The notes: generated from the letters alone by a model not told the origin. A stretch of DNA of 64,000 bases from an uncultured Desulfatiglans sp. (GCA_964499695.1 CAZCMD010000001.1:13872-77871), one strand, 5' to 3'; numbered from the stretch's first letter, positions 3,931 through 64,000 are shown. Program-made: numbers and translations.

Positions 3931-3994
3931 GTTCGAAGTGCGAAGTGACTAAAGTTTGAAATTAACTTCAAACTTCGAACTTCCAACTTCGCAC
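3931..3994. repeat. heptamer-array hairpin between nadE and ilvD
   Basis: Right arm AACTTCA AACTTCG AACTTCC AACTTCG (3964-3991). Left arm CGAAGTG CGAAGTG (3934-3947). Central AAGTTTGAA-attaac-TTCAAACTT is a perfect 9-bp inverted repeat. Confidence 0.8.
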
Positions 3995-3995
3995 A

Positions 3996-5636
3996 TTAAA
4001 AAAATTCACCCCCTCGAGCAATGGGATATCTTCTCCCGTATCCGAATGCCTTTGAGGTTACCTTTAGGCCGGGCGATGCCTGCCTGCGTTTGTATTCGTT
4101 AATGACTATACGTCTGAATGTATCCTTTACGATATGAGGATCATATCCCTGTTCTATTATCTCTTCAAAGGAAAGATTTCTCTCCACGATTGCCTCTATT
4201 AATTTATCAAGCATATCATAAGGAGGTAAAGAGTCCTGATCTGTCTGGTTGGGCCGCAACTCAGCAGATGGTGGACGCTCTATGATTTCCTGAGGGATTA
4301 TCTCTTTTTCCCTGTTTATATATGCTGCCACCCTGTAACAGAGGGTCTTTGGTACATCTGAAATAACCGCGAGCGCACCGCACATATCGCCATATAGAGT
4401 GCAATAACCTGTGGCTGTCTCGGATTTGTTACCGGTAGTTAAGAGCAGCGCATTAAATTTGTTTGACGTTGCCATGAGGAGGGTGCCCCTGATCCTGGCC
4501 TGCAGGTTCTCCTCTGTCTCATTCTCCTTGAGCCCCTTAAAGGAAGGTGAAAGGGAGGTCTTATAGCTGCCAAAGATATTCACAATGGGGATTTCATCAA
4601 AATGGATGCTTAAGTTTTCTGCCAGTGTTCGTGCACATCTTTTACTTAAATCAGAGGTGTACTCTGAGGGCATGCTGACCCCTGTTACATTTTCAGGGCC
4701 AAGGGCCTTTGCGGCTATATATGCCACAAGGGATGAATCCAGGCCGCCGGATAAGCCGACCAGGACCTTTTTAAAACCGCACTTTGTAACATAGTCCCTG
4801 GTACCCAGTGTAAGACAGTTGATTATAGATTCCTCTTCTCCCGGCCACGGATCAGTTACTGGCGAATAATCCTCATCACTGTCCCATATAATTGTATCAG
4901 ACTGGAATTCTTTACCACGAAGAATAAGCCTGCCTTTTTTATCAACCACCATGCTTGACCCGTCAAAGACAAGGTCATCATTTCCGCCGACCTGGTTGCA
5001 ATATATTATCGGGAGATCATATTTACTGGCAATTTTTTCAAGCACCTTCATCCTTAAGGAGGGCTTTTTTATTGTGTATGGTGAGGCAGAAATATTAACC
5101 AGAATATCAATCCCTTTTTCTGTGAGTTCAGCAACAGGGTCTATGCTGTATCTGGGGATGTTCTCTATATCACCGACATTCCATATGTCTTCACAGATAC
5201 TTACGCCAATTATTTTACCATTCAGTTCAAAAAAAAGGCCCTTTTCTGCCGGTTCAAAATACCTGGTTTCATCAAACACATCATAGCTGGGTAACAGTTT
5301 TTTTCCACCGGTGCAGATGATCTTTCCATTATGTAAGAATGCTGCCCCGTTAATAAGAGGTTTACCTTTTCCTGAATGATTTATATCAATAAAACCGCAA
5401 ATAATTCCAATAGATAACGAATTTTTTGAAAGTTTTTCAAGATATTCTGAATTTCTTTTTATGAATGCCGGTTTTTCAAGCAGGTCTTTTGGCGGATAAC
5501 CCATTAATGTGAGTTCAGGAAAAACCGCAAGATCACATCCTGATAAGGATGCTTTCCTTACCGCTTCAGCGACAATTGAAAGGTTATGCTCAAAATCACC
5601 GATAACCGGGTTTATCTGATTGATGGATATTTTCAT
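3996..5636 (-). CDS. nadE: glutamine-dependent NAD+ synthetase (CN-hydrolase domain plus NAD synthetase domain)
   Basis: N-terminal nitrilase-like domain (FPEL, ICEDIW) and C-terminal LSGGLDSS PP-loop. The ATG at 5636 is preferred over the TTG at 5651. Confidence 0.9.
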   Translation of the reverse strand: MKISINQINPVIGDFEHNLSIVAEAVRKASLSGCDLAVFPELTLMGYPPKDLLEKPAFIKRNSEYLEKLSKNSLSIGIICGFIDINHSGKGKPLINGAAFLHNGKIICTGGKKLLPSYDVFDETRYFEPAEKGLFFELNGKIIGVSICEDIWNVGDIENIPRYSIDPVAELTEKGIDILVNISASPYTIKKPSLRMKVLEKIASKYDLPIIYCNQVGGNDDLVFDGSSMVVDKKGRLILRGKEFQSDTIIWDSDEDYSPVTDPWPGEEESIINCLTLGTRDYVTKCGFKKVLVGLSGGLDSSLVAYIAAKALGPENVTGVSMPSEYTSDLSKRCARTLAENLSIHFDEIPIVNIFGSYKTSLSPSFKGLKENETEENLQARIRGTLLMATSNKFNALLLTTGNKSETATGYCTLYGDMCGALAVISDVPKTLCYRVAAYINREKEIIPQEIIERPPSAELRPNQTDQDSLPPYDMLDKLIEAIVERNLSFEEIIEQGYDPHIVKDTFRRIVINEYKRRQASPGLKVTSKAFGYGRRYPIARGGEFF

Positions 5637-5654
5637 AATAAATAAGCTCAAGGT

Positions 5655-5712
5655 TCAATGCTCAAAGCTAAAAGTTCGTGAAAACTTCGAGCTTCGAGCT
5701 TTGAGCTTCTCT
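5655..5712. repeat. heptamer-array hairpin between the KdnA-like gene and nadE
   Basis: GCTCAAA GCTAAAA ... CTTCGAG CTTCGAG CTTTGAG CTTCTCT. GCTCAAAGCT and AGCTTTGAGC form a 10-bp inverted repeat. Confidence 0.8.
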
Positions 5713-5713
5713 C

Positions 5714-6901
5714 TTATATCCCTTTCGCAGCCTTTTCGATCGCCTTTAAAAGCCCGGGCATCTTTTCTTCCATATTGAGTGTTATCTGAAAGGTAAGCGC
5801 CCTTGACATTATGGCTGCTGTTTTTGGAAGGGCTGTCTTGCTGTAGCTGCAACGGGTAGTGCCATCAGGGTTCTTAAATGGATACCCTGTTCTTGTAAGG
5901 CTTTTTCCCTCAAGCAGGTGTTCCCATCTCTCATAATAATGCCAGTCATTATCATACCAGTAAACAGCGCCATAACCCTCAGATGCCATGACCCTGTTGA
6001 ATTCCCTTGCCCTCTTTTCATCAGGCAAAAGGAATATCATGAATGTTGCCGTGTCACCGGATGGATCAGGTATATGGCGGAAGGTAATATCCTTGAACTT
6101 TGAAAGAGTCTCCTTTATACGTGCCTTGTATCCTCTATGTATTTTAAGGATGTTATCAAGTTTATTAAGCTGTGCAACGCCCAGTGCCCCCTGAAGCTCC
6201 ATCATCCTGTAATTAAAACCTGTAAAGCTGCGTTTCTCAAGCCCCCTTGAGACATTGGGGTTATGGTCGTGCCCGTGATCAGAATACTCTGATGCCTTTG
6301 TGTACAGGGTCTTGTCATTTGTAAGTATCATACCGCCTTCACCGGTAGTTATGGTTTTGACCGCATCAAATGAAAATGTTCCAAAGCTGCCAAATGTTCC
6401 AAGCGCCCTTCCGTTGCACCTGCCTCCTGTAGACTGGGCAGTATCCTCAAGCACAGGTATCCCGTGCCTGTCAGCCACCTTGATTATTTCCTCTATATTG
6501 GCGTGAGAGCCGCACATATGGACTGGTATAATGGCCTTAGTCCTGGGGGTAATCTTTTTTTCAAGATCCTTCGGGTCAAGGCAGAGGGTATCATCTATTT
6601 CTGCAAATACAGGTACTGCACCCGCATCGAAAATGGATTCCCATGTGGCTATAAAGGTGAATCCCTGTGTAATAACCTCATCACCCGGCCCTACACCAAG
6701 AGCTGCAAGGGCTACCCTTAATGCCGCAGTACCTGATGAGACAGCAAGGGCATAACCTGCACCACAGTACTTTGCAAAATTTCGCTCAAATTCCAGCACC
6801 TTGCTGTTTTCTTTATGCTCATACCTGAGCAGAATCTTTTTTGATAATGCCTTCTGTACGGCTTCAAGCTCTTCCTGGCCTATAATTTCATATCCTGGCA
6901 T
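5714..6901 (-). CDS. DegT/DnrJ/EryC1-family PLP aminotransferase, KdnA-like (candidate 8-amino-3,8-dideoxy-octulosonate transaminase)
   Basis: SSGTAAL, FSFDAVKTITTGEGG (PLP-lysine region), SDHGHDH and WHYYERWEHL. It sits immediately downstream of an Fe-ADH gene, as in the Shewanella kdnB-kdnA pair (recalled from memory, not searched). Confidence 0.8.
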   Translation of the reverse strand: MPGYEIIGQEELEAVQKALSKKILLRYEHKENSKVLEFERNFAKYCGAGYALAVSSGTAALRVALAALGVGPGDEVITQGFTFIATWESIFDAGAVPVFAEIDDTLCLDPKDLEKKITPRTKAIIPVHMCGSHANIEEIIKVADRHGIPVLEDTAQSTGGRCNGRALGTFGSFGTFSFDAVKTITTGEGGMILTNDKTLYTKASEYSDHGHDHNPNVSRGLEKRSFTGFNYRMMELQGALGVAQLNKLDNILKIHRGYKARIKETLSKFKDITFRHIPDPSGDTATFMIFLLPDEKRAREFNRVMASEGYGAVYWYDNDWHYYERWEHLLEGKSLTRTGYPFKNPDGTTRCSYSKTALPKTAAIMSRALTFQITLNMEEKMPGLLKAIEKAAKGI

Positions 6902-6916
6902 GTGTTATTCCTTTCA

Positions 6917-6983
6917 GTTATCAATGATCAATTATCAAATTTATTTTAACAATATTGTTAACTGTTCATTGATCATTGTTCAT
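6917..6983. repeat. heptamer-array hairpin at the 3' end of the Fe-ADH gene
   Basis: GTTATCA ATGATCA ATTATCA, then the perfect 16-bp palindrome TTAACAATATTGTTAA (6946-6961), then TGTTCAT TGATCAT TGTTCAT. Confidence 0.8.
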
Positions 6984-8136
6984 AGGCGTTACGATATATC
7001 TCTGCCGCAGCCTCTTCTGTCATTGGCCTGGGGTTATTTGCTATAGGTACAGCAACCTGCATGGCTGCCTTTGCCATCTCAGGTATAGAGTCCTCAGGTA
7101 TATTCAGTTCCTTCAGTGTCATGGGTACGCCTATGTCCTCTGCCAGTTCAAACACTGCATCTGCTACAAGCGACGCATATTCCCTGCCTGAAAGTTCTCC
7201 CATCTCCTGATCCATACACAGGGCCATATTGCAGAATTTGTCGATATTGCCCGGGTAATTGTATTCAAGCACATAAGGGAGGAGGAGGCCATTACCAATA
7301 CCATGGGGTACATCAAATATTGCCCCCATCGGATAGGCCATGGCATGTACAGCGCCGACACCGGCCATGGCAAGACCCATTCCGGCAAGGTAACTCCCCA
7401 TCATCATGTTCTCGCGATATTTCAGGTTTTTACCATCAAATACTGCGCCCCTGAGGTTATCCATAATTATTTCAATGGCTTTTAGGGACACAATCTCACT
7501 CATGAAATGTGCCTTAAGTGATGTATATGACTCGATCGCATGGGTGAGTGCATCCATCCCTGTATAGGCAGTTATCATAGGAGGCAGATCAATAGTCAGC
7601 TCAGGGTCAAGTATGGCAGTGTGGGGGTAAAGATAGGGGCTGTTAATACCGCCTTTTTTCTTTGTATCCCTCTGGGTAAAAACCGCGGTAAGGGTGGTTT
7701 CGCTGCCAGTTCCGGCTGTGGTTGGTATCATAATTGTGGGAATACCCGGTTTGTTTACCTTATTTTGCCCAATGTATTCAATTGCCTTTCCTTCATTTCT
7801 AACCAGCACGGAGATTGCCTTTGCAATGTCCATTGTACTGCCGCCGCCAACACCTATAACGCACTGCACCTTTTCCTTAATGGCCAGTTCTGTAGCAAGG
7901 TCTGCGATCCGCGGGTCAGGTTCAGGTGTAATATCCGAGAATATAAAAAACCTTATCCTGGAAGATTTAAGGGCTTCTTTAACATGCTCTGCTATTACAG
8001 ATTTTGCCAGACCCTGATCTATTACAAGAAGTGCCCTTGATGCGCCCAGTTTTTTACATTCGGCACCAAGTTCCATGACAGAACCTGAACCAAAAATAGT
8101 CTTTTTAACGCCTTCTATTGTCTTGATATTATTCAT
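6973..8136 (-). CDS. iron-containing alcohol dehydrogenase family protein (KdnB-like oxidoreductase candidate)
   Basis: GVGGGSTMDIAKA, PTTAGTGSE, and His-rich metal-site motifs (DALTHAIE, GVGAVHAMAYP). Confidence 0.85.
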   Translation of the reverse strand: MNNIKTIEGVKKTIFGSGSVMELGAECKKLGASRALLVIDQGLAKSVIAEHVKEALKSSRIRFFIFSDITPEPDPRIADLATELAIKEKVQCVIGVGGGSTMDIAKAISVLVRNEGKAIEYIGQNKVNKPGIPTIMIPTTAGTGSETTLTAVFTQRDTKKKGGINSPYLYPHTAILDPELTIDLPPMITAYTGMDALTHAIESYTSLKAHFMSEIVSLKAIEIIMDNLRGAVFDGKNLKYRENMMMGSYLAGMGLAMAGVGAVHAMAYPMGAIFDVPHGIGNGLLLPYVLEYNYPGNIDKFCNMALCMDQEMGELSGREYASLVADAVFELAEDIGVPMTLKELNIPEDSIPEMAKAAMQVAVPIANNPRPMTEEAAAEIYRNAYEQ

Positions 8137-9308: not shown

Positions 9309-12300
9309 ATGGCGATGGAGGAAATTATGAGTATGCAGGATGACGAGACCTTGAGACTTTATGTCGAAGAATCAATTGAGCATTTGGCAGACATTGAAAA
9401 TGATCTGCTTGCTATTGAAAAGGATGGCGCTGATATCGATGAAGAACTGGTAAACAAGGTATTTCGTGCTGCCCATTCAATAAAGGGTGGCGCCGGGTTT
9501 ATGGGGCTTAACAATATCAAGGAACTCTCCCATAAAATGGAAAATGTCCTGGGTATGATCAGAGAAAGGGAGATGGTGCCAAACCCTGAAATTGTCAATA
9601 TACTCCTGCTTGCATCAGATACACTAAGAAATCTGCTCAATAATGTCGGCGCCAGTAATGAGATGCCCATTGAAGAACATGTTAATGCCCTTGTTGCCCT
9701 TACAACAGGTGCTGTTCCTGAGAAAAAGGCTATAAAAACAGAGCAAAACATAAACCTGATCTTTGATAATGGCAGGATGACTTTTAATATTTCTGCCTCT
9801 GATCTGGCCAATTCCAGAAAAAAGGGACAATACATATATCTGGCAGAGCTGGATCTTGTTCAGGATGTTGAAAAAAAGGGTCTCACCACTATGGATCTAT
9901 TAAAAAGGCTCAGTGAAAGTGGGACGATTCTATCTAATGAGGTCGATGTACAATCGGTTGGTACACTTGAAAAGTACTCAACATCAAGCAAGGTGCCTTT
10001 TCTCGTCCTGTTCGGGACGATACTTGAACCTGAAATGGTAAACGCCCTTTTTGATATTAATGAAGAGAATATTTACCTGCTGGAAGACAATAACAGTTTT
10101 ATAAGGCTTACCGAATATGGCCAACCTCAAGAAACCGCAGAAGTCAAAAAAAGTCATGAGGAAACTCCTGTGATTCAACCTGAAGAAAAGGCTTTTAAAG
10201 AAGATACAACATCATTCTCTTCCCCTGAAACAGGTTCAACTATTGCTGCCAAAGAAACGGATATATCTGCTTCTTCCGCTTCAAAAACCGCTGATACAAG
10301 CCTGAGGGTCAATGTAAGTCTTCTTGATTCCCTGATGACACTTGCCGGAGAACTGGTACTTGGCAGAAATCAGCTCATGCAGTCTATTGGTCAGAAGGAT
10401 ATCAGGGCAATAGAAGGGACCGGTCAGAGGCTGGATCTTATAACATCAGAGATTCAGGAAGCAATCATGATGACAAGGATGCAGCCGATCGGTAATGTAT
10501 TAAACAAATTTCCAAGGGTTGTAAGAGACCTTGCCCGAAATCTGAACAAGGAGGTTAAGCTTACCATTGAAGGCGAAGGGGTTGAACTGGATAAAACAAT
10601 CCTTGAAGCAATCAATGATCCCCTTACACATCTTGTCAGAAATTCAGTTGATCACGGTATAGAACTTCCTGCTGAAAGGCAGAGGGCAGGAAAGGAATCT
10701 GTCGGTCATGTGTTGCTCAAGGCATATCATGAGGCAGGCCAGGTGAATATAGAAATCAGGGATGATGGAAAGGGCATAAATCCCAACAAGCTGACAAAGG
10801 TTGCCCTTGAGAAAAAGGTGATAACCGAAGATCAGGCAATTTCAATGTCTGATAAGGAAAAGATAAATCTGATATTCCTTCCCGGTTTTTCAACAGCGGA
10901 AAAGGTAAGCGATGTATCAGGGCGCGGTGTTGGTATGGACGTTGTTAAAACCAACCTTGATAAGCTTGGTGGTGTTGTGGATGTGGATTCTGCTATCGGT
11001 AAGGGTACAACTATAAAAATCAAACTGCCCCTTACACTGGCAATTATTCCAAGTCAGTTGATAAGTGTTTGCGGTGAAAGATATGCTATACCACAGGTCA
11101 ACCTTGAAGAACTCTTCAGGATACCTGCCAATCAGGTCAAAGACAGGATAGAAAAGGTCGGTGATGCAGAGGTTGTAAGATTAAGAGGAAGCCTTCTTCC
11201 CCTGATCAGGCTTTCCGATGTTATAGGGATTGAAAGAGAATACATTGACACCAGCGAAAAAATCAAAAAATCTGACAGAAGGGAAAGCATTTCTGACAGA
11301 AGAGGGAGAAAAAGTCCTCTTAAAAAGGCTGTAAAGGATGATATCATCCGCGGGATTAATGAGAGCAGCGAAGGATCGGAAGAAAATGATACAGAAGACG
11401 ATTACTCAAACCGGAGAAAAAAATCCACTGACCGAAGATATCATGCTTCCAGTGCGGTAAATATTGTTGTTGTCTATACCGGGGCACTTAAATACGGGCT
11501 TGTTGTGGATATATTACACGATTCCGAAGAAATCGTGGTAAAACCGCTTGGAAGGCATCTCAAACACTGCAAGGCATATGCCGGCGCCACCATAATGGGA
11601 GATGGCCGTGTAGCGCTGATTCTTGATGTTGCAGGAATTTCCAAGATGGCCCGCCTGACTTCAATGGATGGTACTGAGAGGGCTGTGCAGGTTGCCAAGG
11701 AACAGAGGATGAAGAGCCAGAAAGATATCCAGTCTCTGCTTATTTTCAGGAATGCAGAAGACGAACAGTTTGCAGTCCCCTTAGGTCTTGTTGAAAGGGT
11801 TGAGAAGATAAAACGGACTGACATAGAACATGTTGGAGGGAAAAAGGTTATACAGTACAGGGGTGCAAGCCTGCCTTTATTTGCCATAGAACAGGTAGCC
11901 AATGTAAAACCCCTTTCTGACAAGGAAGATCTGCTTGTAATTGTATTTTCTATCGGTGGAAGGGATATAGGTCTTCTCGCTACACCGCCGCTTGATTCAA
12001 CAGAAGAGGCCCTGACAGTAGATGACATGACCCTCAAGCAGACTGGGATCATGGGTTCGGCCATAATAGGGAATCAGACAACCCTCATGATAAATATCTT
12101 CGGGATTGTCGAGGCCCTTAACCCTGACTGGTTTACCAAAAAGGAAACAGTTATGGTTTCTGAAAACAAGGCCGCTACGGTTCTCTATGCTGAGGACTCC
12201 AATTTTTTCAGGGGGCAGGTTACTGAATACCTGAAGGAAGACGGGTATAATGTTATTGAGGCAGAAGATGGTCGAATCGCCCTTGATCTTATTGAAAAAC

Positions 12301-13167: not shown

Positions 13168-14292
13168 ATGGAAAAAACTCCCCTCAGAGTGCTTGTGGTC
13201 GACGATACCGTGGTTTATCGTAAGACTGTGAGTGATGTGCTGGCTGAAATACCAGGTGTTGAGGTAGTCGGGACTGCCAATAATGGCAAGATTGCCATGA
13301 TGAAGATAGCCTCCCTGAAGCCAGACCTCATTACCCTTGATATCGAAATGCCTGAGATGAACGGGCTTGATGTGCTGAGGGCGTTAAAAACAGAGGCGCC
13401 TGATGTTGGCGCCATAGTATTAAGCACACTTACTCACAAGGGCGGTGACCTCACCATAAAGGCGCTTGAGCTGGGCGCCTTTGATTATATTACAAAACCG
13501 GAAACCGGAAGTATTGAAGAGAGTAAAAGAACAATAAAAAAGATACTGGATCTTTTGCTCAAGAGTTACTCCAGACATCTGGAGATGAAAAAGATTCTGC
13601 GGGGCGCAGGTTACGGAAAATCATATACTACTGAGGCAGTATCAGGTCAGGCTGATTTAAGGACATCAAGGTACACTTCAGTTTCATCAACAAGATCACA
13701 CAGAAAGGTAAAAGCGGAAATCGTAGGTATTGGAATATCAACCGGAGGTCCAAAGGCATTATCTGAAATGATGCCTATGATTCCTGCTAATATTAATGTG
13801 CCTATATTAATAGTACAGCATATGCCTCCAATGTTTACCGAATCACTTGCGAAAAGTCTCAATGCACGATGTGCCATTGAAGTTAAAGAGGCAGAGGATG
13901 GAGAGATAATCAGACCCAACGTCGCATTTATTGCACCTGGTGGAAGGCAGATGAAGGTAGTTGCAGGCGCTGACGGGTTGAGCAGGATAATCAGGATTAC
14001 GGATGATCCTCCTGAAAATAGCTGCAAGCCTTCTGTGGATTATCTGTTCAGGTCAATTGCCGAGCATTATGTGGGTCGTTCTGCCGGTGTAATAATGACA
14101 GGTATGGGTTCTGACGGCACTCTGGGTTTAAGAGTAATGAAGAAAAATGGTTCATTTATCATTGCGCAGGATGAACCAAGCTGTGTTGTATTTGGTATGC
14201 CGAAAAAGCCTATTGATGAGGGGATTGTTGATATTATCGCACCCCTGGACAGGCTCGCGGATGAGATTTCTAACAGTGTAAAAGCTATATAG
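13168..14292 (+). CDS. cheB: chemotaxis response regulator protein-glutamate methylesterase CheB
   Basis: REC (VLVVDD, DIEMPEMNG) plus the methylesterase domain (GISTGGP, QHMPPMFT, TGMGSDG). Confidence 0.93.
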   Translation: MEKTPLRVLVVDDTVVYRKTVSDVLAEIPGVEVVGTANNGKIAMMKIASLKPDLITLDIEMPEMNGLDVLRALKTEAPDVGAIVLSTLTHKGGDLTIKALELGAFDYITKPETGSIEESKRTIKKILDLLLKSYSRHLEMKKILRGAGYGKSYTTEAVSGQADLRTSRYTSVSSTRSHRKVKAEIVGIGISTGGPKALSEMMPMIPANINVPILIVQHMPPMFTESLAKSLNARCAIEVKEAEDGEIIRPNVAFIAPGGRQMKVVAGADGLSRIIRITDDPPENSCKPSVDYLFRSIAEHYVGRSAGVIMTGMGSDGTLGLRVMKKNGSFIIAQDEPSCVVFGMPKKPIDEGIVDIIAPLDRLADEISNSVKAI

Positions 14293-18444: not shown

Positions 18445-18627
18445 TAAGAGAAATATTTTTCCGCTAAAAGGGGAAGATTATTCCTTCTTTACGGCAGAAG
18501 ACAAGATGTTAATTGTAATTAAAAATATAAAAAGAATTAAAGAAATAATATGTAACCTGCTGAATATACAGTATAATTTTCACGCTTATCAATGCTGTGT
18601 ATTAACGGTGTATGATCATCCGGATTA

Positions 18628-24441: not shown

Positions 24442-26733
24442 CTAAGACAGTGTGCTTAACTGGCTCGAAAGCCACTGGCCCTCCGATTGCAGCTTTGAAA
24501 GAGCCAACTCCATTGCCACAAACCGGGCAATCATCGCTTCCTGTTTTCTGCTCAGCCGCGCGTTAACATTGTCAATGAGCTCTTCCTTGTTGTCGATCTG
24601 GTCAGATAGTGAATCAATCTTGTTTGCCACATATCCGTCAATTGAATCGGTTATATTAAATAGCGCCCTGTCAAAAAGCTCGGCAACACCTACTGTGAAT
24701 TTGATATTTCCCACATTCCCTGTGGTTGAGCCTGTATATTTAATAGTAAGTCCCGCAATATTGGCTGCATCTTTATCTCCGGTAAGCCTTTGTCCACTGC
24801 CTCTGGCAGCCTCTCCGTTTATGGTGCCTGCAACATCCTGTCCATTATTTACCGTTACAGGTGAACCTGCCCAGAGTGATGAATTTATTGTAAAACTGTT
24901 ACCACTGCCATAATCATCACTGCTTAAAATCAGGTGACCGGCGCCATCGTCCGATGCACCTACGCTTATGGCATATCTTCCTTCCTGGCCATCCCCATTA
25001 CTGGTTAGGACTGTCCCGAAAACAGATGCCCCGGTGCTGTCAAATGCAAATGTAAGGTTACTTGCACCCTCTTCATTATCCGTTAAAACAAGACGGCCAT
25101 TTACGTCAATGGAAGCGGATATATCATTACCAAAGGCAGACTCTATTTCAGTGAGAAGTCCCTGGATGGTGTCTGTGGAGGCACTCTCTATGGTGTATGA
25201 TCCTGAAATAGCGGACCCATCCCGTGCAGTACCTGTAAAACTGATTGCATTTCCATCAGAGAGAGTTGCCCCATCTATTGCAGCCCATGTTGTGGAAGAT
25301 GTAACAGCAGCACCGCCCGCTTGTACAGCATTATTCCCGACCAGTTTTTCAGTATAGACTGTTTCCAGTTCACTGTTTATAGCTGTAGTAATATCCGGTA
25401 TAGTCATATCTGAGGTAAGATTGATCACTGCTGTTTGATCTCCCTGCGATATGGTCAGGGTTTGATCACTCCCTAAAGTTCCGGAAATAGCTGAACTGGG
25501 GTCGGAAATACTTTTAGTAGCGGCCTGTGTTATATTTACAGCATAGTTACCGGCTTTTGTGTCATTTGTGCTGTATGCATATTCTATAGAACCGGAGGTT
25601 GAGGAGCCGTTAGCACTGAAAAGTTTTTGTATGTCACTGAAATTTGATTCCAGATATTCCCCAAGCTCTTCACTGTCAATACTCAGTTGATTATTTGAGT
25701 CCAGATGTATGCCGGCAAGTCCCATAATTGAAAATTTTGAAGACACTCCCCATACAGGATCAACGAGCAGAGATGCGAGGTCTGATTTTATAGATGAAAG
25801 TGTTCCGTCACCAAAGAGTACCGCCTGCGAATCTTTATCACTTTCATTATAGGTCTGCTGTTTATTAATATAGGAAGATACCTCATTATATGCATCCACA
25901 AATGTCTGTAGCTTTTTTTCAATCCCACTTGTATCTCTATCTATATTTAGGGTGATGGTTGTAGATGTATCCTCACCTGTAAGTTTAAAAGTTACACCTG
26001 TTAACACATCGTCTATGATATTATCCTCGCTTGTTACCGCTATTCCGTCCAGTAAAAATGAGGCATCCTTGCCTTCAACTAACGTATTTACCGTACCTAT
26101 TGAGTCTGTCCACCCCATAGCCTGTAGAATATCTGTGGCTGACCCGTTTTCAAGGCTTATCCCTTCTGCACCTGTATCGTCGCTTGTAAGGTTAAGGCGG
26201 TAGTCTGTATCACTGTATCGTATCAGGCTGGCTGTAACACCTGCACCTGCGTTGTTAATTTTATTTCTTAAATCATCAAGACCATCAGTCGCTGATACAG
26301 TTATGGTTTTGCCGTTTATAATTATATTGCCGTTGAATTCCGACCCAAGGTCATTTGTACCGCTTGTAAATGAAGCAGAACCAATTTTATGAGCTGTGGC
26401 TATATTATTAATGGTAATAGTATATGATCCTTTAACTGCAGAAGAGTCAGTTGATACACTTAGAAGATCTTCTGCATCAATATCTGCGTTGTCTGAGGTC
26501 ATGGAAGAGGAAAAGGTGTTAAAATTATCGGGTTTAGAAAGTGCAGCAGCAGCAGTTTTTAGAGAAAGAAGCTGGGTATTAAAAGAGCGCCATTCCGTAA
26601 GCTGGGTCTCATACTGGGTCTTCTGCTTTTCTAACATATTCACTGGCCTCTTTTCAATGGCCATCAATTGATCAACCATTGTTCTCCAGTCAAAACCGCT
26701 TGAAAGACCACTTATCTGATTTGTACTTGCCAT
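24442..26733 (-). CDS. fliD: flagellar filament cap protein FliD (HAP2), long form
   Basis: N-terminal ISGLSSGFDWRTMVDQLMAIEKRP, C-terminal RFVAMELALSKLQSEGQWLSSQL, and a long S/T/G-rich centre. AGGAG RBS. Confidence 0.9.
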   Translation of the reverse strand: MASTNQISGLSSGFDWRTMVDQLMAIEKRPVNMLEKQKTQYETQLTEWRSFNTQLLSLKTAAAALSKPDNFNTFSSSMTSDNADIDAEDLLSVSTDSSAVKGSYTITINNIATAHKIGSASFTSGTNDLGSEFNGNIIINGKTITVSATDGLDDLRNKINNAGAGVTASLIRYSDTDYRLNLTSDDTGAEGISLENGSATDILQAMGWTDSIGTVNTLVEGKDASFLLDGIAVTSEDNIIDDVLTGVTFKLTGEDTSTTITLNIDRDTSGIEKKLQTFVDAYNEVSSYINKQQTYNESDKDSQAVLFGDGTLSSIKSDLASLLVDPVWGVSSKFSIMGLAGIHLDSNNQLSIDSEELGEYLESNFSDIQKLFSANGSSTSGSIEYAYSTNDTKAGNYAVNITQAATKSISDPSSAISGTLGSDQTLTISQGDQTAVINLTSDMTIPDITTAINSELETVYTEKLVGNNAVQAGGAAVTSSTTWAAIDGATLSDGNAISFTGTARDGSAISGSYTIESASTDTIQGLLTEIESAFGNDISASIDVNGRLVLTDNEEGASNLTFAFDSTGASVFGTVLTSNGDGQEGRYAISVGASDDGAGHLILSSDDYGSGNSFTINSSLWAGSPVTVNNGQDVAGTINGEAARGSGQRLTGDKDAANIAGLTIKYTGSTTGNVGNIKFTVGVAELFDRALFNITDSIDGYVANKIDSLSDQIDNKEELIDNVNARLSRKQEAMIARFVAMELALSKLQSEGQWLSSQLSTLS

Positions 26734-26862: not shown

Positions 26863-26897
26863 TTTAAGGTTTTAGGTGTGCGGTTTAAGGTCTAAGG
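26863..26897. repeat. tandem degenerate heptamers (TTTAAGG TTTTAGG TGTGCGG TTTAAGG TCTAAGG)
   Basis: Five consecutive 7-nt units ending in GG, read directly from the sequence. Confidence 0.8.
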
Positions 26898-26898
26898 T

Positions 26899-26953
26899 AA
26901 AAAAAATAAAAAACCCCGCAACCGGGGATCCGGAAGCGGGGTTTTTTATTTTT
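26899..26953 (-). terminator. rho-independent (bidirectional) terminator downstream of fliC
   Basis: A-run, then CCCCGC-16 nt-GCGGGG, then a T-run. On the minus strand the stem is followed by TTTTTTATTTTTTT. Confidence 0.8.
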
Positions 26954-26956
26954 CTC

Positions 26957-26984
26957 TTTGAGCTTTCAGCCTTCAGCTTACAGC
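26957..26984. repeat. tandem degenerate heptamers (TTTGAGC TTTCAGC CTTCAGC TTACAGC)
   Basis: Four consecutive 7-nt units followed by AAAATGCT. The same unit type and the same trailing AAAATGCT occur at 62903-62945. Confidence 0.8.
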
Positions 26985-26993
26985 TCTAAAATG

Positions 26994-27752
26994 CTAGCCG
27001 AACAGAGAGAGTACACCCTGTGAAGACATATTAGCCTGGGCAAGCATTGCAGTACCTGCCTGCAGTAGTATCTGGCTCTTTGTAAAGCTTGACATCTCAG
27101 CCGCCATATCAACATCCCTGATTACAGATTCAGCCGCAGTCTTGTTTTCAATGGTTGTTGCAAGGTTAGCTGCTGCATAAGAAAGCCTGTTCTGTGCAGC
27201 GCCGAGGCTGGCACGGGAATCACTTAATGTACCAGCAGCGGCTGTAACTAGCTCAATATCAGCGGCACCCAAACTTGTTGCACTAAGACCATCAAGACCC
27301 AAATCGGCTGAACTTACGGCGGACGCAGTATAACTTATCTGGCTAAAGGTTGTAGCATCTGCACCAACCTGAATGGTTCCGCTAAGTGATATACTATTCC
27401 CGATTCTGTCTATTTCAGAGAGAAGCTCCTGTGCTTCATCAGCGGCAGTACTACCACCCTGTGTGGCAAGTTCGCCAAGCCTGCTAAGGATATTTGCTAT
27501 CTGGTCATAGGCACCTTCAGCTACCTGAATACCGGCATTTGCCTGTTCAACGTTTCTTGCTGCCTGGGTCAGAGAGGCGATTTCAACCCTTGCTGCTGTA
27601 GAAATTGCCAGACCTGTTGCATCATCAGATGCTTTATTGATTCTGTAACCAGATGACAGCCTTTCCAGTGATTTAGCCATCATATTGCTGGAAATGGTTA
27701 AATTTTTGTGTGCGTTCAATGCCTCGATGTTGTGTTGTATTCTTAATCCCAT
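26994..27752 (-). CDS. fliC: flagellin (short, 252 aa)
   Basis: N-terminal LRIQHNIEALNAHKNL...LSSGYRINKASDDATGLAIS. C-terminal AESVIRDVDMAAEMSSFTKSQILLQAGTAMLAQAN. GGAGG RBS. Confidence 0.95.
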   Translation of the reverse strand: MGLRIQHNIEALNAHKNLTISSNMMAKSLERLSSGYRINKASDDATGLAISTAARVEIASLTQAARNVEQANAGIQVAEGAYDQIANILSRLGELATQGGSTAADEAQELLSEIDRIGNSISLSGTIQVGADATTFSQISYTASAVSSADLGLDGLSATSLGAADIELVTAAAGTLSDSRASLGAAQNRLSYAAANLATTIENKTAAESVIRDVDMAAEMSSFTKSQILLQAGTAMLAQANMSSQGVLSLFG

Positions 27753-62902: not shown

Positions 62903-62997
62903 TGGCAGCGGTCAGCCATCAGCGTTCAGCTTTCAGCAAAATGCTTTTAAAACGGGGTCTTTGCTCACGGCTGACAGCTGAATGCTGAAAGCTCCAT
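62903..62997. repeat. inverted pair of heptamer arrays (5 x NNNCAGC, 25-nt spacer, 5 x GCTNNNN) forming a long imperfect hairpin
   Basis: Left arm TGGCAGC GGTCAGC CATCAGC GTTCAGC TTTCAGC. Right arm GCTCACG GCTGACA GCTGAAT GCTGAAA GCTCCAT. Confidence 0.8.
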
Positions 62998-63793: not shown

Positions 63794-63828
63794 GCACGGT
63801 ATACGGTGTACGGTTTGAGGTATAAGGA
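63794..63828. repeat. tandem degenerate heptamers (GCACGGT ATACGGT GTACGGT TTGAGGT ATAAGGA)
   Basis: Five 7-nt units between lexA and the four-helix-bundle gene. The last unit supplies the AAGGAGG RBS. Confidence 0.75.
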
Positions 63829-63837
63829 GGGATTGTT

Positions 63838-64000
63838 ATGGGAGATTTTCAGAAGCTTAAAGTCTGGCAACGCGCTAAGGGTCTGGCTGTTTCCATTTAT
63901 AAAATAATCAATCAGGGCCCTCTAAAAAGGGATTATTGCTTAAAAGATCAGATTTGGAGATCAGCAATTTCCATACCGAGTAATATAGCTGAGGGTGATG
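63838..64000 (+). CDS. four-helix-bundle protein (23S rRNA intervening-sequence protein family), N-terminal part
   Basis: Not in the ORF track because the window edge truncates it. My translation gives MGDFQKLKVWQRAKGLAVSIYKIINQGPLKRDYCLKDQIWRSAISIPSNIAEGD, the family hallmark (VWQ.A..L, R.A.SI.SNIAEG). Confidence 0.8.
   Translation, partial: MGDFQKLKVWQRAKGLAVSIYKIINQGPLKRDYCLKDQIWRSAISIPSNIAEGD

Follow-up and report, generated by a model that had tools for sequence, protein, structure and literature searches.

Opposed tandem-heptamer hairpins between genes of an uncultured Desulfatiglans sp. are probably the arms, mostly without a gene, of cassettes encoding PF05635 proteins

Introduction

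Why do three consecutive gaps within one bacterial gene cluster each hold a hairpin of the same peculiar build? The question is raised by a stretch of 64,000 nt from an uncultured Desulfatiglans sp. (GCA_964499695.1, CAZCMD010000001.1:13872-77871), below referred to as the window, in which pairs of opposed arrays of tandem degenerate heptamers, able to fold back on each other, recur between genes. An earlier note, made from the sequence alone, had described these elements, likened them to the short tandemly repeated repetitive (STRR) sequences of heterocystous cyanobacteria and offered three kinds of role: signals for transcript 3'-ends or processing, a protein-binding scaffold, or footprints of replication slippage or of an insertion process. 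Tandem heptamers of bacteria have been noted repeatedly, as STRR sequences, as TAACTGA repeats and as paired sites of Geobacter, without an agreed origin or function. STRR sequences have been known since about 1990; they were defined as direct repeats with the consensus units CCCCAGT, TTGGTCA and CAACAGT, and are not known for hairpin symmetry or a gene partner.

Here, we compared the hairpins of the window with orthologous junctions in relatives and with similar arrays elsewhere. We put the probability at about 0.7 that they are the paired arms, mostly gene-less, of selfish cassettes resembling the intervening sequences (IVSs) of 23S ribosomal RNA (rRNA) genes that bear an open reading frame (ORF). 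The gene in question belongs to PF05635/TIGR02436, a family of four-helix-bundle proteins that is among the commonest small protein families of unknown function. Of cassettes with this gene, only the ORF-bearing 23S rRNA IVSs have been studied by experiment.

Results

Tandem heptamers form non-random intergenic hairpins

Arrays were detected in the window by Tandem Repeats Finder and by a lag-scan of our own, the latter controlled by 40 first-order Markov shuffles and read at an array score of at least 9. At this cut-off, the lag-scan returned 11 arrays of period 7 compared to 0.6 expected (shuffle maximum 3), and at a score of at least 13 there were still three compared to none in the shuffles. 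Periods 5, 6 and 8-14 yielded 0-4 arrays each, at or near background. Ten of the 11 period-7 arrays are intergenic, with intergenic DNA accounting for only 8.8% of the window, and the single array in coding sequence (13495-13510) looks like chance. Tandem Repeats Finder listed period-7 arrays at 3964-3990, 5644-5674, 5685-5709, 6920-6938, 26863-26898, 26956-26985, 62906-62937, 62970-62993 and 63796-63814, and thus in all six places that the earlier note had named. Imperfect hairpins can form on both strands at 3931-3994 (site A), 5644-5710 (site B), 6914-6983 (site C) and 62903-62997 (site E), with z-scores of -3.9 to -5.0 except for site C on the plus strand (-2.0); over the whole window, the count of sites with such a fold is five (z -4 to -6.6). 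Their stems consist of helices of 5-6 bp and symmetric internal loops of 1-2 nt, in phase with the heptamers. These results confirm that the intergenic tandem-heptamer hairpins are non-random, and bear out the 7-nt period, the opposed arrangement and the hairpin potential put forward before. No rRNA or other RNA family was found anywhere in the window by Rfam at gathering thresholds.

The unit types of the window comprise GAAGTTN, GAAGCTN, ATGATCA, TCAGCNN and ACGGTNT. The view that the unit differs at every locus holds insofar as there are several types; it does not hold for sites A and B, whose units GAAGTTN and GAAGCTN are related, nor for a 19-nt motif, ACTTTAGTCACTYCGAACT, in the 3' arm of site A. 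This motif occurs 16 times, always within the window and nine loci of relatives (L001-L009, see below), and is dispersed over several junctions, which argues that the arms form a dispersed repeat family of this clade and are not purely locus-specific. Arrays of this kind might be neutral slippage microsatellites with chance inverted symmetry, unrelated to any gene or element. Their copy number does change rapidly, and heptanucleotides were reported to be the commonest 5-11 nt class in most of the prokaryotic genomes surveyed (cited in PMC4679880). However, the complementarity of partner arrays is far above that of shuffled controls, the 19-nt motif at the end of the arm is conserved and recurs at several junctions, all of them in this clade, and the arrays show a strong and specific association with PF05635 genes, as described below. 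We give this explanation next to no credence.

Hairpins A to C lie inside an apparent operon

The genes around sites A-C are arranged on the minus strand in the order Fe-ADH, DegT-type aminotransferase (previously termed KdnA-like), NAD synthase (nadE) and IlvD, with gaps of 60-80 nt; these earlier gene names are right by Pfam. A scan of the three gaps called neither a terminator nor a gene-strand promoter, and hairpins A-C therefore lie inside what appears to be a single operon. Site A (3931-3994, minus strand) is an ORF-less hairpin with a period-7 array, placed between the nadE stop codon and the ilvD ribosome-binding site; on the gene strand, its 5' arm consists of four GAAGTTN units, its 3' arm includes AACTTTAGTCACTTCGCACTTCGAACT, and it folds with -23.5 kcal/mol (z -3.9). 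Site B (5644-5710, minus strand), also ORF-less, lies between the aminotransferase stop codon and the nadE ATG at ~5636, is built from GAAGCTC/AAAGCTC units and folds with -28.8 kcal/mol (z -4.7). The listed start of the nadE ORF is a TTG at 5651, within this hairpin; judged by relatives, the real start is the ATG at ~5636, only 7 nt past the 3' arm, and no clear Shine-Dalgarno sequence precedes it. Site C (6914-6983, minus strand), the ORF-less hairpin of the Fe-ADH/aminotransferase gap, has period-7 arrays in which ATGAACA/ATGATCA units are opposed to TTGATAA/TTGATCA units, and folds on the gene strand with -16.2 kcal/mol (z -4.0). Fe-ADH terminates within this hairpin, as its three final codons and stop (Y-E-Q-stop, 6973-6984) are inside the first heptamers of the 5' arm; Fe-ADH of relatives ends in Y-E-G-stop or Y-E-R-stop.

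Stable stem-loops 3' of stop codons are reminiscent of intergenic transcription terminators or attenuators, and a further site of the window, D, indeed encloses a genuine terminator, the only one among the sites. Yet none of sites A-C was called terminator-like or has a proper U-tract, they are located inside the apparent operon, and the following gene begins directly after them with its ribosome-binding site or ATG, a position that suits neither an intrinsic terminator nor a stabiliser of the type of repetitive extragenic palindromes. In addition, relatives have a translated gene between these very arms. A terminator or attenuator function is thus highly improbable, and the 3'-end signal proposed earlier is, in its ordinary form, not supported for these sites.

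Orthologous junctions hold complete, decaying, gene-less and empty forms

A scan with NAD synthase placed the window among Desulfatiglandales-like Desulfobacterota (best match 87% protein identity). The loci compared carry L-numbers; L001-L080 and the window together amount to ~1.45 Mb. Period-7 arrays were specifically enriched in the closest loci, L001, L003-L005, L008, L009 and L013, at the same junctions as in the window, and both unit and copy number vary between relatives, as the comparison suggested in the earlier note was meant to reveal. At the aminotransferase/nadE junction, the window, L002, L003 and L005 hold the hairpin only, L001 and L008 contain a complete 120-aa PF05635 gene between heptamer arms (679-1041 in L001, E 1.2e-19), and L004 has a stub of ~11 nt in which only AGTGGGAACTT is left. 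At the nadE/ilvD junction, the window and L008 share nearly the same hairpin (66/69 nt identical, 96%) amid coding DNA that is 73-78% identical, L001 has one arm expanded to ~26 units, L003 retains a single arm, and L005 and L006 are clean, without a hairpin. In L009, the arms of this junction surround an in-frame, internally deleted ORF (MDNKE...ELLAVFTTIGKKKQK-stop): positions 11625-11990 comprise heptamer arms and a 22-codon in-frame remnant of a four-helix-bundle gene (MDNKECGELLAVFTTIGKKKQK-stop). This remnant represents a stage of decay at which a full cassette is on its way to a solo hairpin. At the Fe-ADH/aminotransferase junction, L003 holds a rearranged orthologous copy of site C, and L004 and L005 have GAAGT-type arms.

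Full, decaying, arms-only and empty states are all present within this small set of orthologous junctions. Miniature inverted-repeat transposable elements (MITEs) are short ORF-less derivatives that retain the inverted ends of a longer element, and the same pattern of internal deletion with both inverted ends kept was found at the aminotransferase/nadE and nadE/ilvD junctions. Comparison of filled and empty junctions revealed at best an ambiguous repeat of 3-4 nt (TAAT).

Two arrays of the relatives stand out. The expanded arm of L001 (2769-2949, 181 nt) has ~26 CTTTGAG/CTTCGAG units facing just ~2 units in the other arm; the putative ilvD start follows closely, and part of the array is read through by a frame that opens with TTG. 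L009 carries an 11-unit array of TTTATCA/TTTGTCA/TTGGTCA/TTGATCA at 18455-18529, the only place where TTGGTCA, the cyanobacterial STRR2 consensus, was encountered, and thus in a deltaproteobacterial genome.

The junctions may also be read in the opposite direction, with the hairpins first: host intercistronic elements of RNA or DNA would have arisen by slippage and been kept by selection, the genes would be guests homing into their loops, and the solo hairpins would be landing pads. In line with this, ORF-bearing hairpins are a small minority next to solo hairpins, both in the window and its relatives and in Geobacter metallireducens according to its published description, and the conservation of hairpin A exceeds that of the adjoining coding DNA. 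On the other side stand the ORF decaying inside its arms in L009 and the hairpin-free junctions of the close relatives L005 and L006, which indicate that the hairpin is not an essential host feature. Further points on both sides come from the genes themselves.

Heptamer arms accompany PF05635 genes in other bacteria

The PF05635 profile was seeded with diverse plasmid and metagenome sequences; one restricted to the closest homologues proved overly narrow and did not pick up the gene fragment of the window itself. With this profile, three PF05635 genes were found in the window and L001-L080, all of which abut heptamer arrays. One of them is a key neighbour of the hairpins that had been overlooked in the earlier note: its first 54 codons occupy 63838-64000 (plus strand) before the gene runs off the window end (Pfam PF05635 E 2.5e-16, TIGR02436 E 1.1e-14). 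The 5' arm of this ORF-bearing cassette, site F (63796-63827, plus strand), is composed of ACGGTNT/GAGGTAT heptamers, starts 5 nt past the lexA stop codon and stops 10 nt before the gene start. It is a single arm within the window, as the 3' arm would fall past the window end; a look-up of the exact LexA sequence of the window, made in search of this arm, had no hit. A homologue of this gene in L178 (Prolixibacteraceae) lies between opposed heptamers, GAGTTAC/GAGCTTC versus ACTCGAA. At 1001-1350 of that locus, the homologue is broken by a stop codon after 78 codons and similar-looking sequence runs on to the 3' arm, from which it is likely a pseudogene within intact arms.

For the L001 protein, and thus for one subfamily of PF05635 only, more than 5,700 homologues were found. 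The best 120 of them are ~70% or more identical and stem from Desulfobacterales, Scalindua/Brocadiales and others, many of them on very short contigs. Of the 80 metagenomic homologues, most have tandem arms, made of CTAAAGTG(N1-2) units before the gene and of CACTTTAG units after it, and the arms often abut the start and stop codons directly. Folded together, the upstream and downstream flanks gave -61.9 kcal/mol compared to -41.4 kcal/mol when the downstream flank was shuffled, and for 56 of 72 cassettes the excess in pairing energy was above 3 standard deviations. Arrays also covered more of the 150 nt next to the gene than of the remaining locus sequence, by factors of 6.5 (period 7), 26 (period 9) and 28 (period 10). 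Strict detection at constant period found arrays on both sides in only 38 of 83 loci; this is an undercount because 9- and 10-nt units alternate, and the pairing-energy test is the better measure. About one in nine metagenomic cassettes has the layout arm-ORF-arm-loop-arm. In six loci of the MDNKEF subfamily (L092, L108, L111, L118, L124 and L127), a small conserved stem-loop, GCGCTTTCAGCGC or GCGCGCCTTCGGCGC, is placed between the 5' arm and the ATG. The gene-bearing contigs among L092-L171 are often very short or end in or near arrays (e.g. L092, L119 and L148), and the repeats thus seem to break short-read metagenome assemblies.

On finished plasmids, all 16 homologues inspected have heptamer arrays on both sides in reverse-complement relation; three of the 16 show a nested layout or a short, degenerate downstream arm. 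These copies span five phyla, mostly cyanobacteria, and are from Nostoc (three), Aulosira, Dolichospermum, Anabaena, Planktothrix, Pseudanabaena, Gloeocapsa, Euhalothece, Chlorohelix, Bernardetia, Chondrinema, Treponema, Monoglobus (an unannotated copy) and a second N. flagelliforme plasmid with an identical protein. Examples of opposed units are CAATTCG and CGAATTG in Nostoc punctiforme, TTCAAAA and TTTTGAA in N. flagelliforme and Aulosira, 15 copies of TTAGTGA and TCACTAA in Bernardetia, and ~40 GAAAGNN units and CCGCTCT-type units in Treponema; the Chondrinema gene is flanked by units like those of site C (GTGAACA GTGATCA ... TAACTGATCACTG). The period of the arms is usually 7, and 8-10 in some subfamilies. 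A 40-kb stretch of a Nostoc plasmid harbours a cassette as well as solo opposed arrays, one of which shares the AATTCAA unit of the cassette at a distance of 2.4 kb. Inverted repeats able to pair into a stem around the ORF, as in IVSs, are accordingly a property of 56/72 metagenomic cassettes and 16/16 plasmid copies.

Defence loci often house four-helix-bundle cassettes on plasmids (L174, L175, L184, L185, L187 and L188). In one setting, the cassette separates DISARM drmD from an MmeI-type enzyme gene; in others it is placed between hsdS and hsdR or beside cas1/cas2, and in both Chlorohelix and Gloeocapsa it lies between a DUF1156 and a Swt1-HEPN gene. Four of the four-helix-bundle proteins were tested with PADLOC models, and none matched.

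For the idea that genes homed into older hairpins, the arm-ORF-arm-loop-arm layout counts in favour, as it would be expected from integration beside a complete hairpin. Against it, arms travel with the gene: within one subfamily, CTAAAGTG-type arms are found in most of 80 loci, in different organisms.

Repeat units co-vary with the encoded protein

The plasmid copies allowed units and proteins to be compared. The 79% identical proteins of N. flagelliforme and Aulosira both have the arm unit TTCAAAA; proteins of 72-78% identity (N. punctiforme, Dolichospermum, Nostoc ATCC 53789) are accompanied by AATTCGC, AATTCGT and AAGTCGC arms, and those of 66-71% identity in Planktothrix, Chlorohelix and Gloeocapsa, from two phyla, by ATTTTGG/ATTTTAG-type arms. 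The repeat unit thus co-varies with protein similarity. Within every cassette, the arms stay complementary while the units shift between lineages, a compensatory change on a large scale; either the pairing or a process of copying is thus maintained. The four-helix-bundle protein is under purifying selection, with a ratio of nonsynonymous to synonymous divergence (dN/dS) of 0.08-0.14. The cassette is co-oriented with its upstream neighbour in 51/53 and with its downstream neighbour in 59/66 cases. The encoded protein matches only PF05635/TIGR02436, and no transposase is associated with it; its closest solved relative is the uncharacterised structure 2RLD. The PF05635 family is related to Avd, the accessory protein of diversity-generating retroelements (PMC10053308).

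Between L001 and L008, dS of the four-helix-bundle gene is 0.35, whereas the flanking nadE and aminotransferase genes, with 72-77% protein identity, have saturated dS. The cassette is thus much younger than its flanking genes, by mobility or exchange, and since the low dS is not accounted for by constraint at the protein level, it was exchanged or re-acquired at the same junction. This age difference, at a junction that is already armed in many relatives, would also fit repeated homing into landing pads; the co-variation of unit and protein across phyla argues against a guest gene and a pre-existing host hairpin. Taking all points together, we regard the hairpins-first explanation as unlikely and prefer to see the hairpins as arms of the cassettes.

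The co-variation also bears on the possibility that the opposed arrays are binding sites of a global regulator or nucleoid protein such as integration host factor (IHF) or HU. Tandem short repeats are typical of protein-binding arrays, and this interpretation was published for the very similar paired sites of G. metallireducens (PMC2700814). A conserved host regulator would, however, forbid units that differ within one genome and track the four-helix-bundle protein between genomes. The arrays are moreover located between stop and start codons of co-transcribed genes rather than at promoters, and vary from 0 to ~26 copies at one junction with the genes unchanged. We therefore consider regulator sites very unlikely, and the arms of a gene cassette the better interpretation.

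Sites D and E and arrays around a DHH-CBS-type gene

Site D is situated between fliC (26994-27752) and fliD (24442-26733). It consists of a left array of five TTTAAGG-like units (26863-26898) and a right, period-7 array of four CTTTCAG-like units (26956-26985), which enclose a strong bidirectional intrinsic terminator, evident from the sequence by its A-tract, CCCCGC...GCGGGG stem and T-tract (26899-26955). This terminator is the core of the site and dominates the regional fold (-50 kcal/mol); the arrays pair solely on the plus strand, opposite to the genes, via G-U pairs. The assignment of site D to the cassette family, which is by architecture, is weak.

Site E (62903-62997), an ORF-less hairpin in the divergent region between an ABC substrate-binding-protein gene and lexA, opposes four NNTCAGC to four GCTGANN units and is the clearest case of 5-bp helices with 2x2 internal loops. 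Its two strands fold with -43.2 and -41.6 kcal/mol (z -5.0 and -4.3). Units of the same type, GCTGAAA/TTTCAGC, form complementary arrays on either side of a DHH-CBS-type gene of 433 aa, ~1.45 kb apart, in L001 (9317-9350 and 10784-10822) and L003 (13414-13451 and 14888-14925).

Discussion

We propose that a complete cassette consists of a PF05635/TIGR02436 gene of ~120 aa, tightly bracketed by a 5' tandem array and a 3' array in reverse complement, and that such cassettes sit in spacers of co-directional genes, in the same direction as their neighbours. Given this placement, they are probably transcribed within host operons. The two arms would fold into a long, periodically mismatched stem with the ORF in the loop; as a stem of tandem units can begin pairing in several registers, this design may help arms to find each other over 400 nt. 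By analogy with published work on 23S rRNA IVSs, from which this step is solely drawn, RNase III may cut the RNA stem. Within an operon, such a cut would free the message of the cassette, part it from the flanking messages and limit harm to the host, and a role as transcript processing signal is in this respect plausible. Loss of the ORF by internal deletion would yield solo hairpins such as sites A, B, C and probably E, and slippage would lengthen and shorten the arrays. Existing arm pairs may further serve as sites of homology or protein recognition for the entry or exchange of cassettes, as the difference in dS and the arm-ORF-arm-loop-arm layouts suggest. Among the roles offered in the earlier note, footprints of an insertion process come closest: the orthologous junctions point to a gene cassette of which, in most cases, the arms alone are present. 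Overall, the earlier interpretation is partly supported.

Several points weigh against our proposal. Sites C, D and E are tied to the gene family by architecture and unit resemblance, with no orthologous ORF-bearing copy, and the arms of site D barely pair. The direction of change, that is loss or gain of the ORF, is read from a single intermediate, the one in L009. The arrays around the ordinary 433-aa gene of L001 and L003 do not fit a cassette of one gene and two arms. At the cassettes and junctions examined, neither a transposase nor a target-site duplication nor any other means of insertion could be identified. The near-identity of hairpin A in distant relatives could reflect selection at the level of the host instead of mobility. 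Finally, fold energies and G-U counts showed no significant asymmetry between gene strand and antisense strand, be it in 72 cassettes (41 versus 30, p = 0.12) or in 17 solo hairpins. The orientation of solo hairpins relative to the host genes is uninformative, since a hairpin and its reverse complement share the same order of arms. The stem may act at the level of RNA or at that of DNA.

The IVSs of 23S rRNA genes in Leptospira and Coxiella burnetii likewise contain a PF05635-type ORF within terminal inverted repeats that form a stem; they are regarded as selfish, and their ORF can decay. In Coxiella, the ORF (S23p) follows 2-3 tandem GACAGAT heptamers, the number of which varies between strains, and RNase III cleaves the IVS stem at the first of these heptamers (PMC4990558). 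A PF05635 protein is also encoded by the cassette form studied here (63838 in the window, L001), the solo hairpins A-E being ORF-less. In contrast to IVSs, all sites of the window lie between protein-coding genes instead of inside a 23S rRNA gene at helix 25 or 45, most copies in the window have no ORF, and both arms are multi-unit tandem arrays. As the window elements are not in rRNA, we treat them as a variant of the IVS-type element and not as members of it.

Opposed arrays have been catalogued before in G. metallireducens (Aklujkar et al. 2009, PMC2700814); together with the Coxiella heptamers in front of S23p (PMC4990558), they contradict the statement in the earlier note that no equivalent was described. 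In that report, each site has 3-5 tandem repeats of 7-9 nt with the units GTTGCTYN, TCTCCGTS[Y] or MTYCTGA; the sites are paired on opposite strands at variable spacing between adjacent, often co-directional genes, for example proB/proA and the pyruvate dehydrogenase E1 alpha and beta subunit genes, and classes 1-3 are interpreted as IHF/HU or regulator sites. By this description, sites A, B, C and E share their architecture. Different from our cassettes, the part accessible reports no enclosed four-helix-bundle gene, and some of the sites carry IS110-family insertions. ISGme8 and ISGme9, of this family, reportedly lie at a constant spacing from paired sites of class 1 (supplement of PMC2700814), which suggests that the hairpins of G. 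metallireducens are themselves targets of insertion.

The TAACTGA repeats described by MacGregor (2015, PMC4679880) in marine Beggiatoaceae, cyanobacteria and Bacteroidetes are also intergenic heptamers just before start codons, in phyla rich in four-helix-bundle genes. Units containing TAACTGA are present in L003 and in the cassette arms of Chondrinema. Unlike the arrays described here, they are almost all direct repeats (one is inverted) and were proposed to be translational regulator sites, with no gene partner noted.

The comparison with STRR sequences, drawn in the earlier note, proved apt. Tandem, mostly intergenic heptamers of many unit types and variable copy number are common to both, and such heptamers flank four-helix-bundle genes on plasmids of Nostoc, Aulosira, Anabaena, Dolichospermum and Planktothrix, with solo opposed arrays nearby. 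The difference is that the window belongs to a Desulfatiglandales-like deltaproteobacterium rather than a heterocystous cyanobacterium, and that the STRR consensus units are not among its array units. A further parallel is found in eukaryotic Foldback transposons, whose terminal inverted repeats are tandem arrays of short units in variable copy number. We use MITEs and Foldback elements as a working analogy and do not claim membership; in contrast to them, the cassette encodes a small helical bundle and not a recombinase.

What appears to be new is the link between opposed repeat arrays and the PF05635 gene family, the paired arrays themselves being already described in G. metallireducens. A search of the literature outside subscription journals returned no link of heptamer repeats to PF05635 genes beyond Coxiella, and an earlier description is possible. 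The cassette family may explain at least some of the unexplained heptamer repeats in several bacterial phyla. A more far-reaching version is doubtful, though conceivable: a single superfamily of selfish intra-operon cassettes could be the common source of STRR sequences, TAACTGA repeats, the Geobacter sites and the hairpins of the window, with a protein that recognises its own arm units, as the co-variation of unit and protein suggests, and thereby drives RNA processing or the copying of cassettes into other arm pairs.

For annotation, our interpretation means that hairpins of this type should not be called host regulatory sites without evidence. If our interpretation is true, it would account for broken metagenome assemblies and for the presence of the gene in unrelated operons, such as those of restriction, DISARM and CRISPR systems. 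It would also hint at the target of the PF05635 protein, namely its own repeat arms, and offer, for an entire class of repeats in bacteria, an origin that can be tested.

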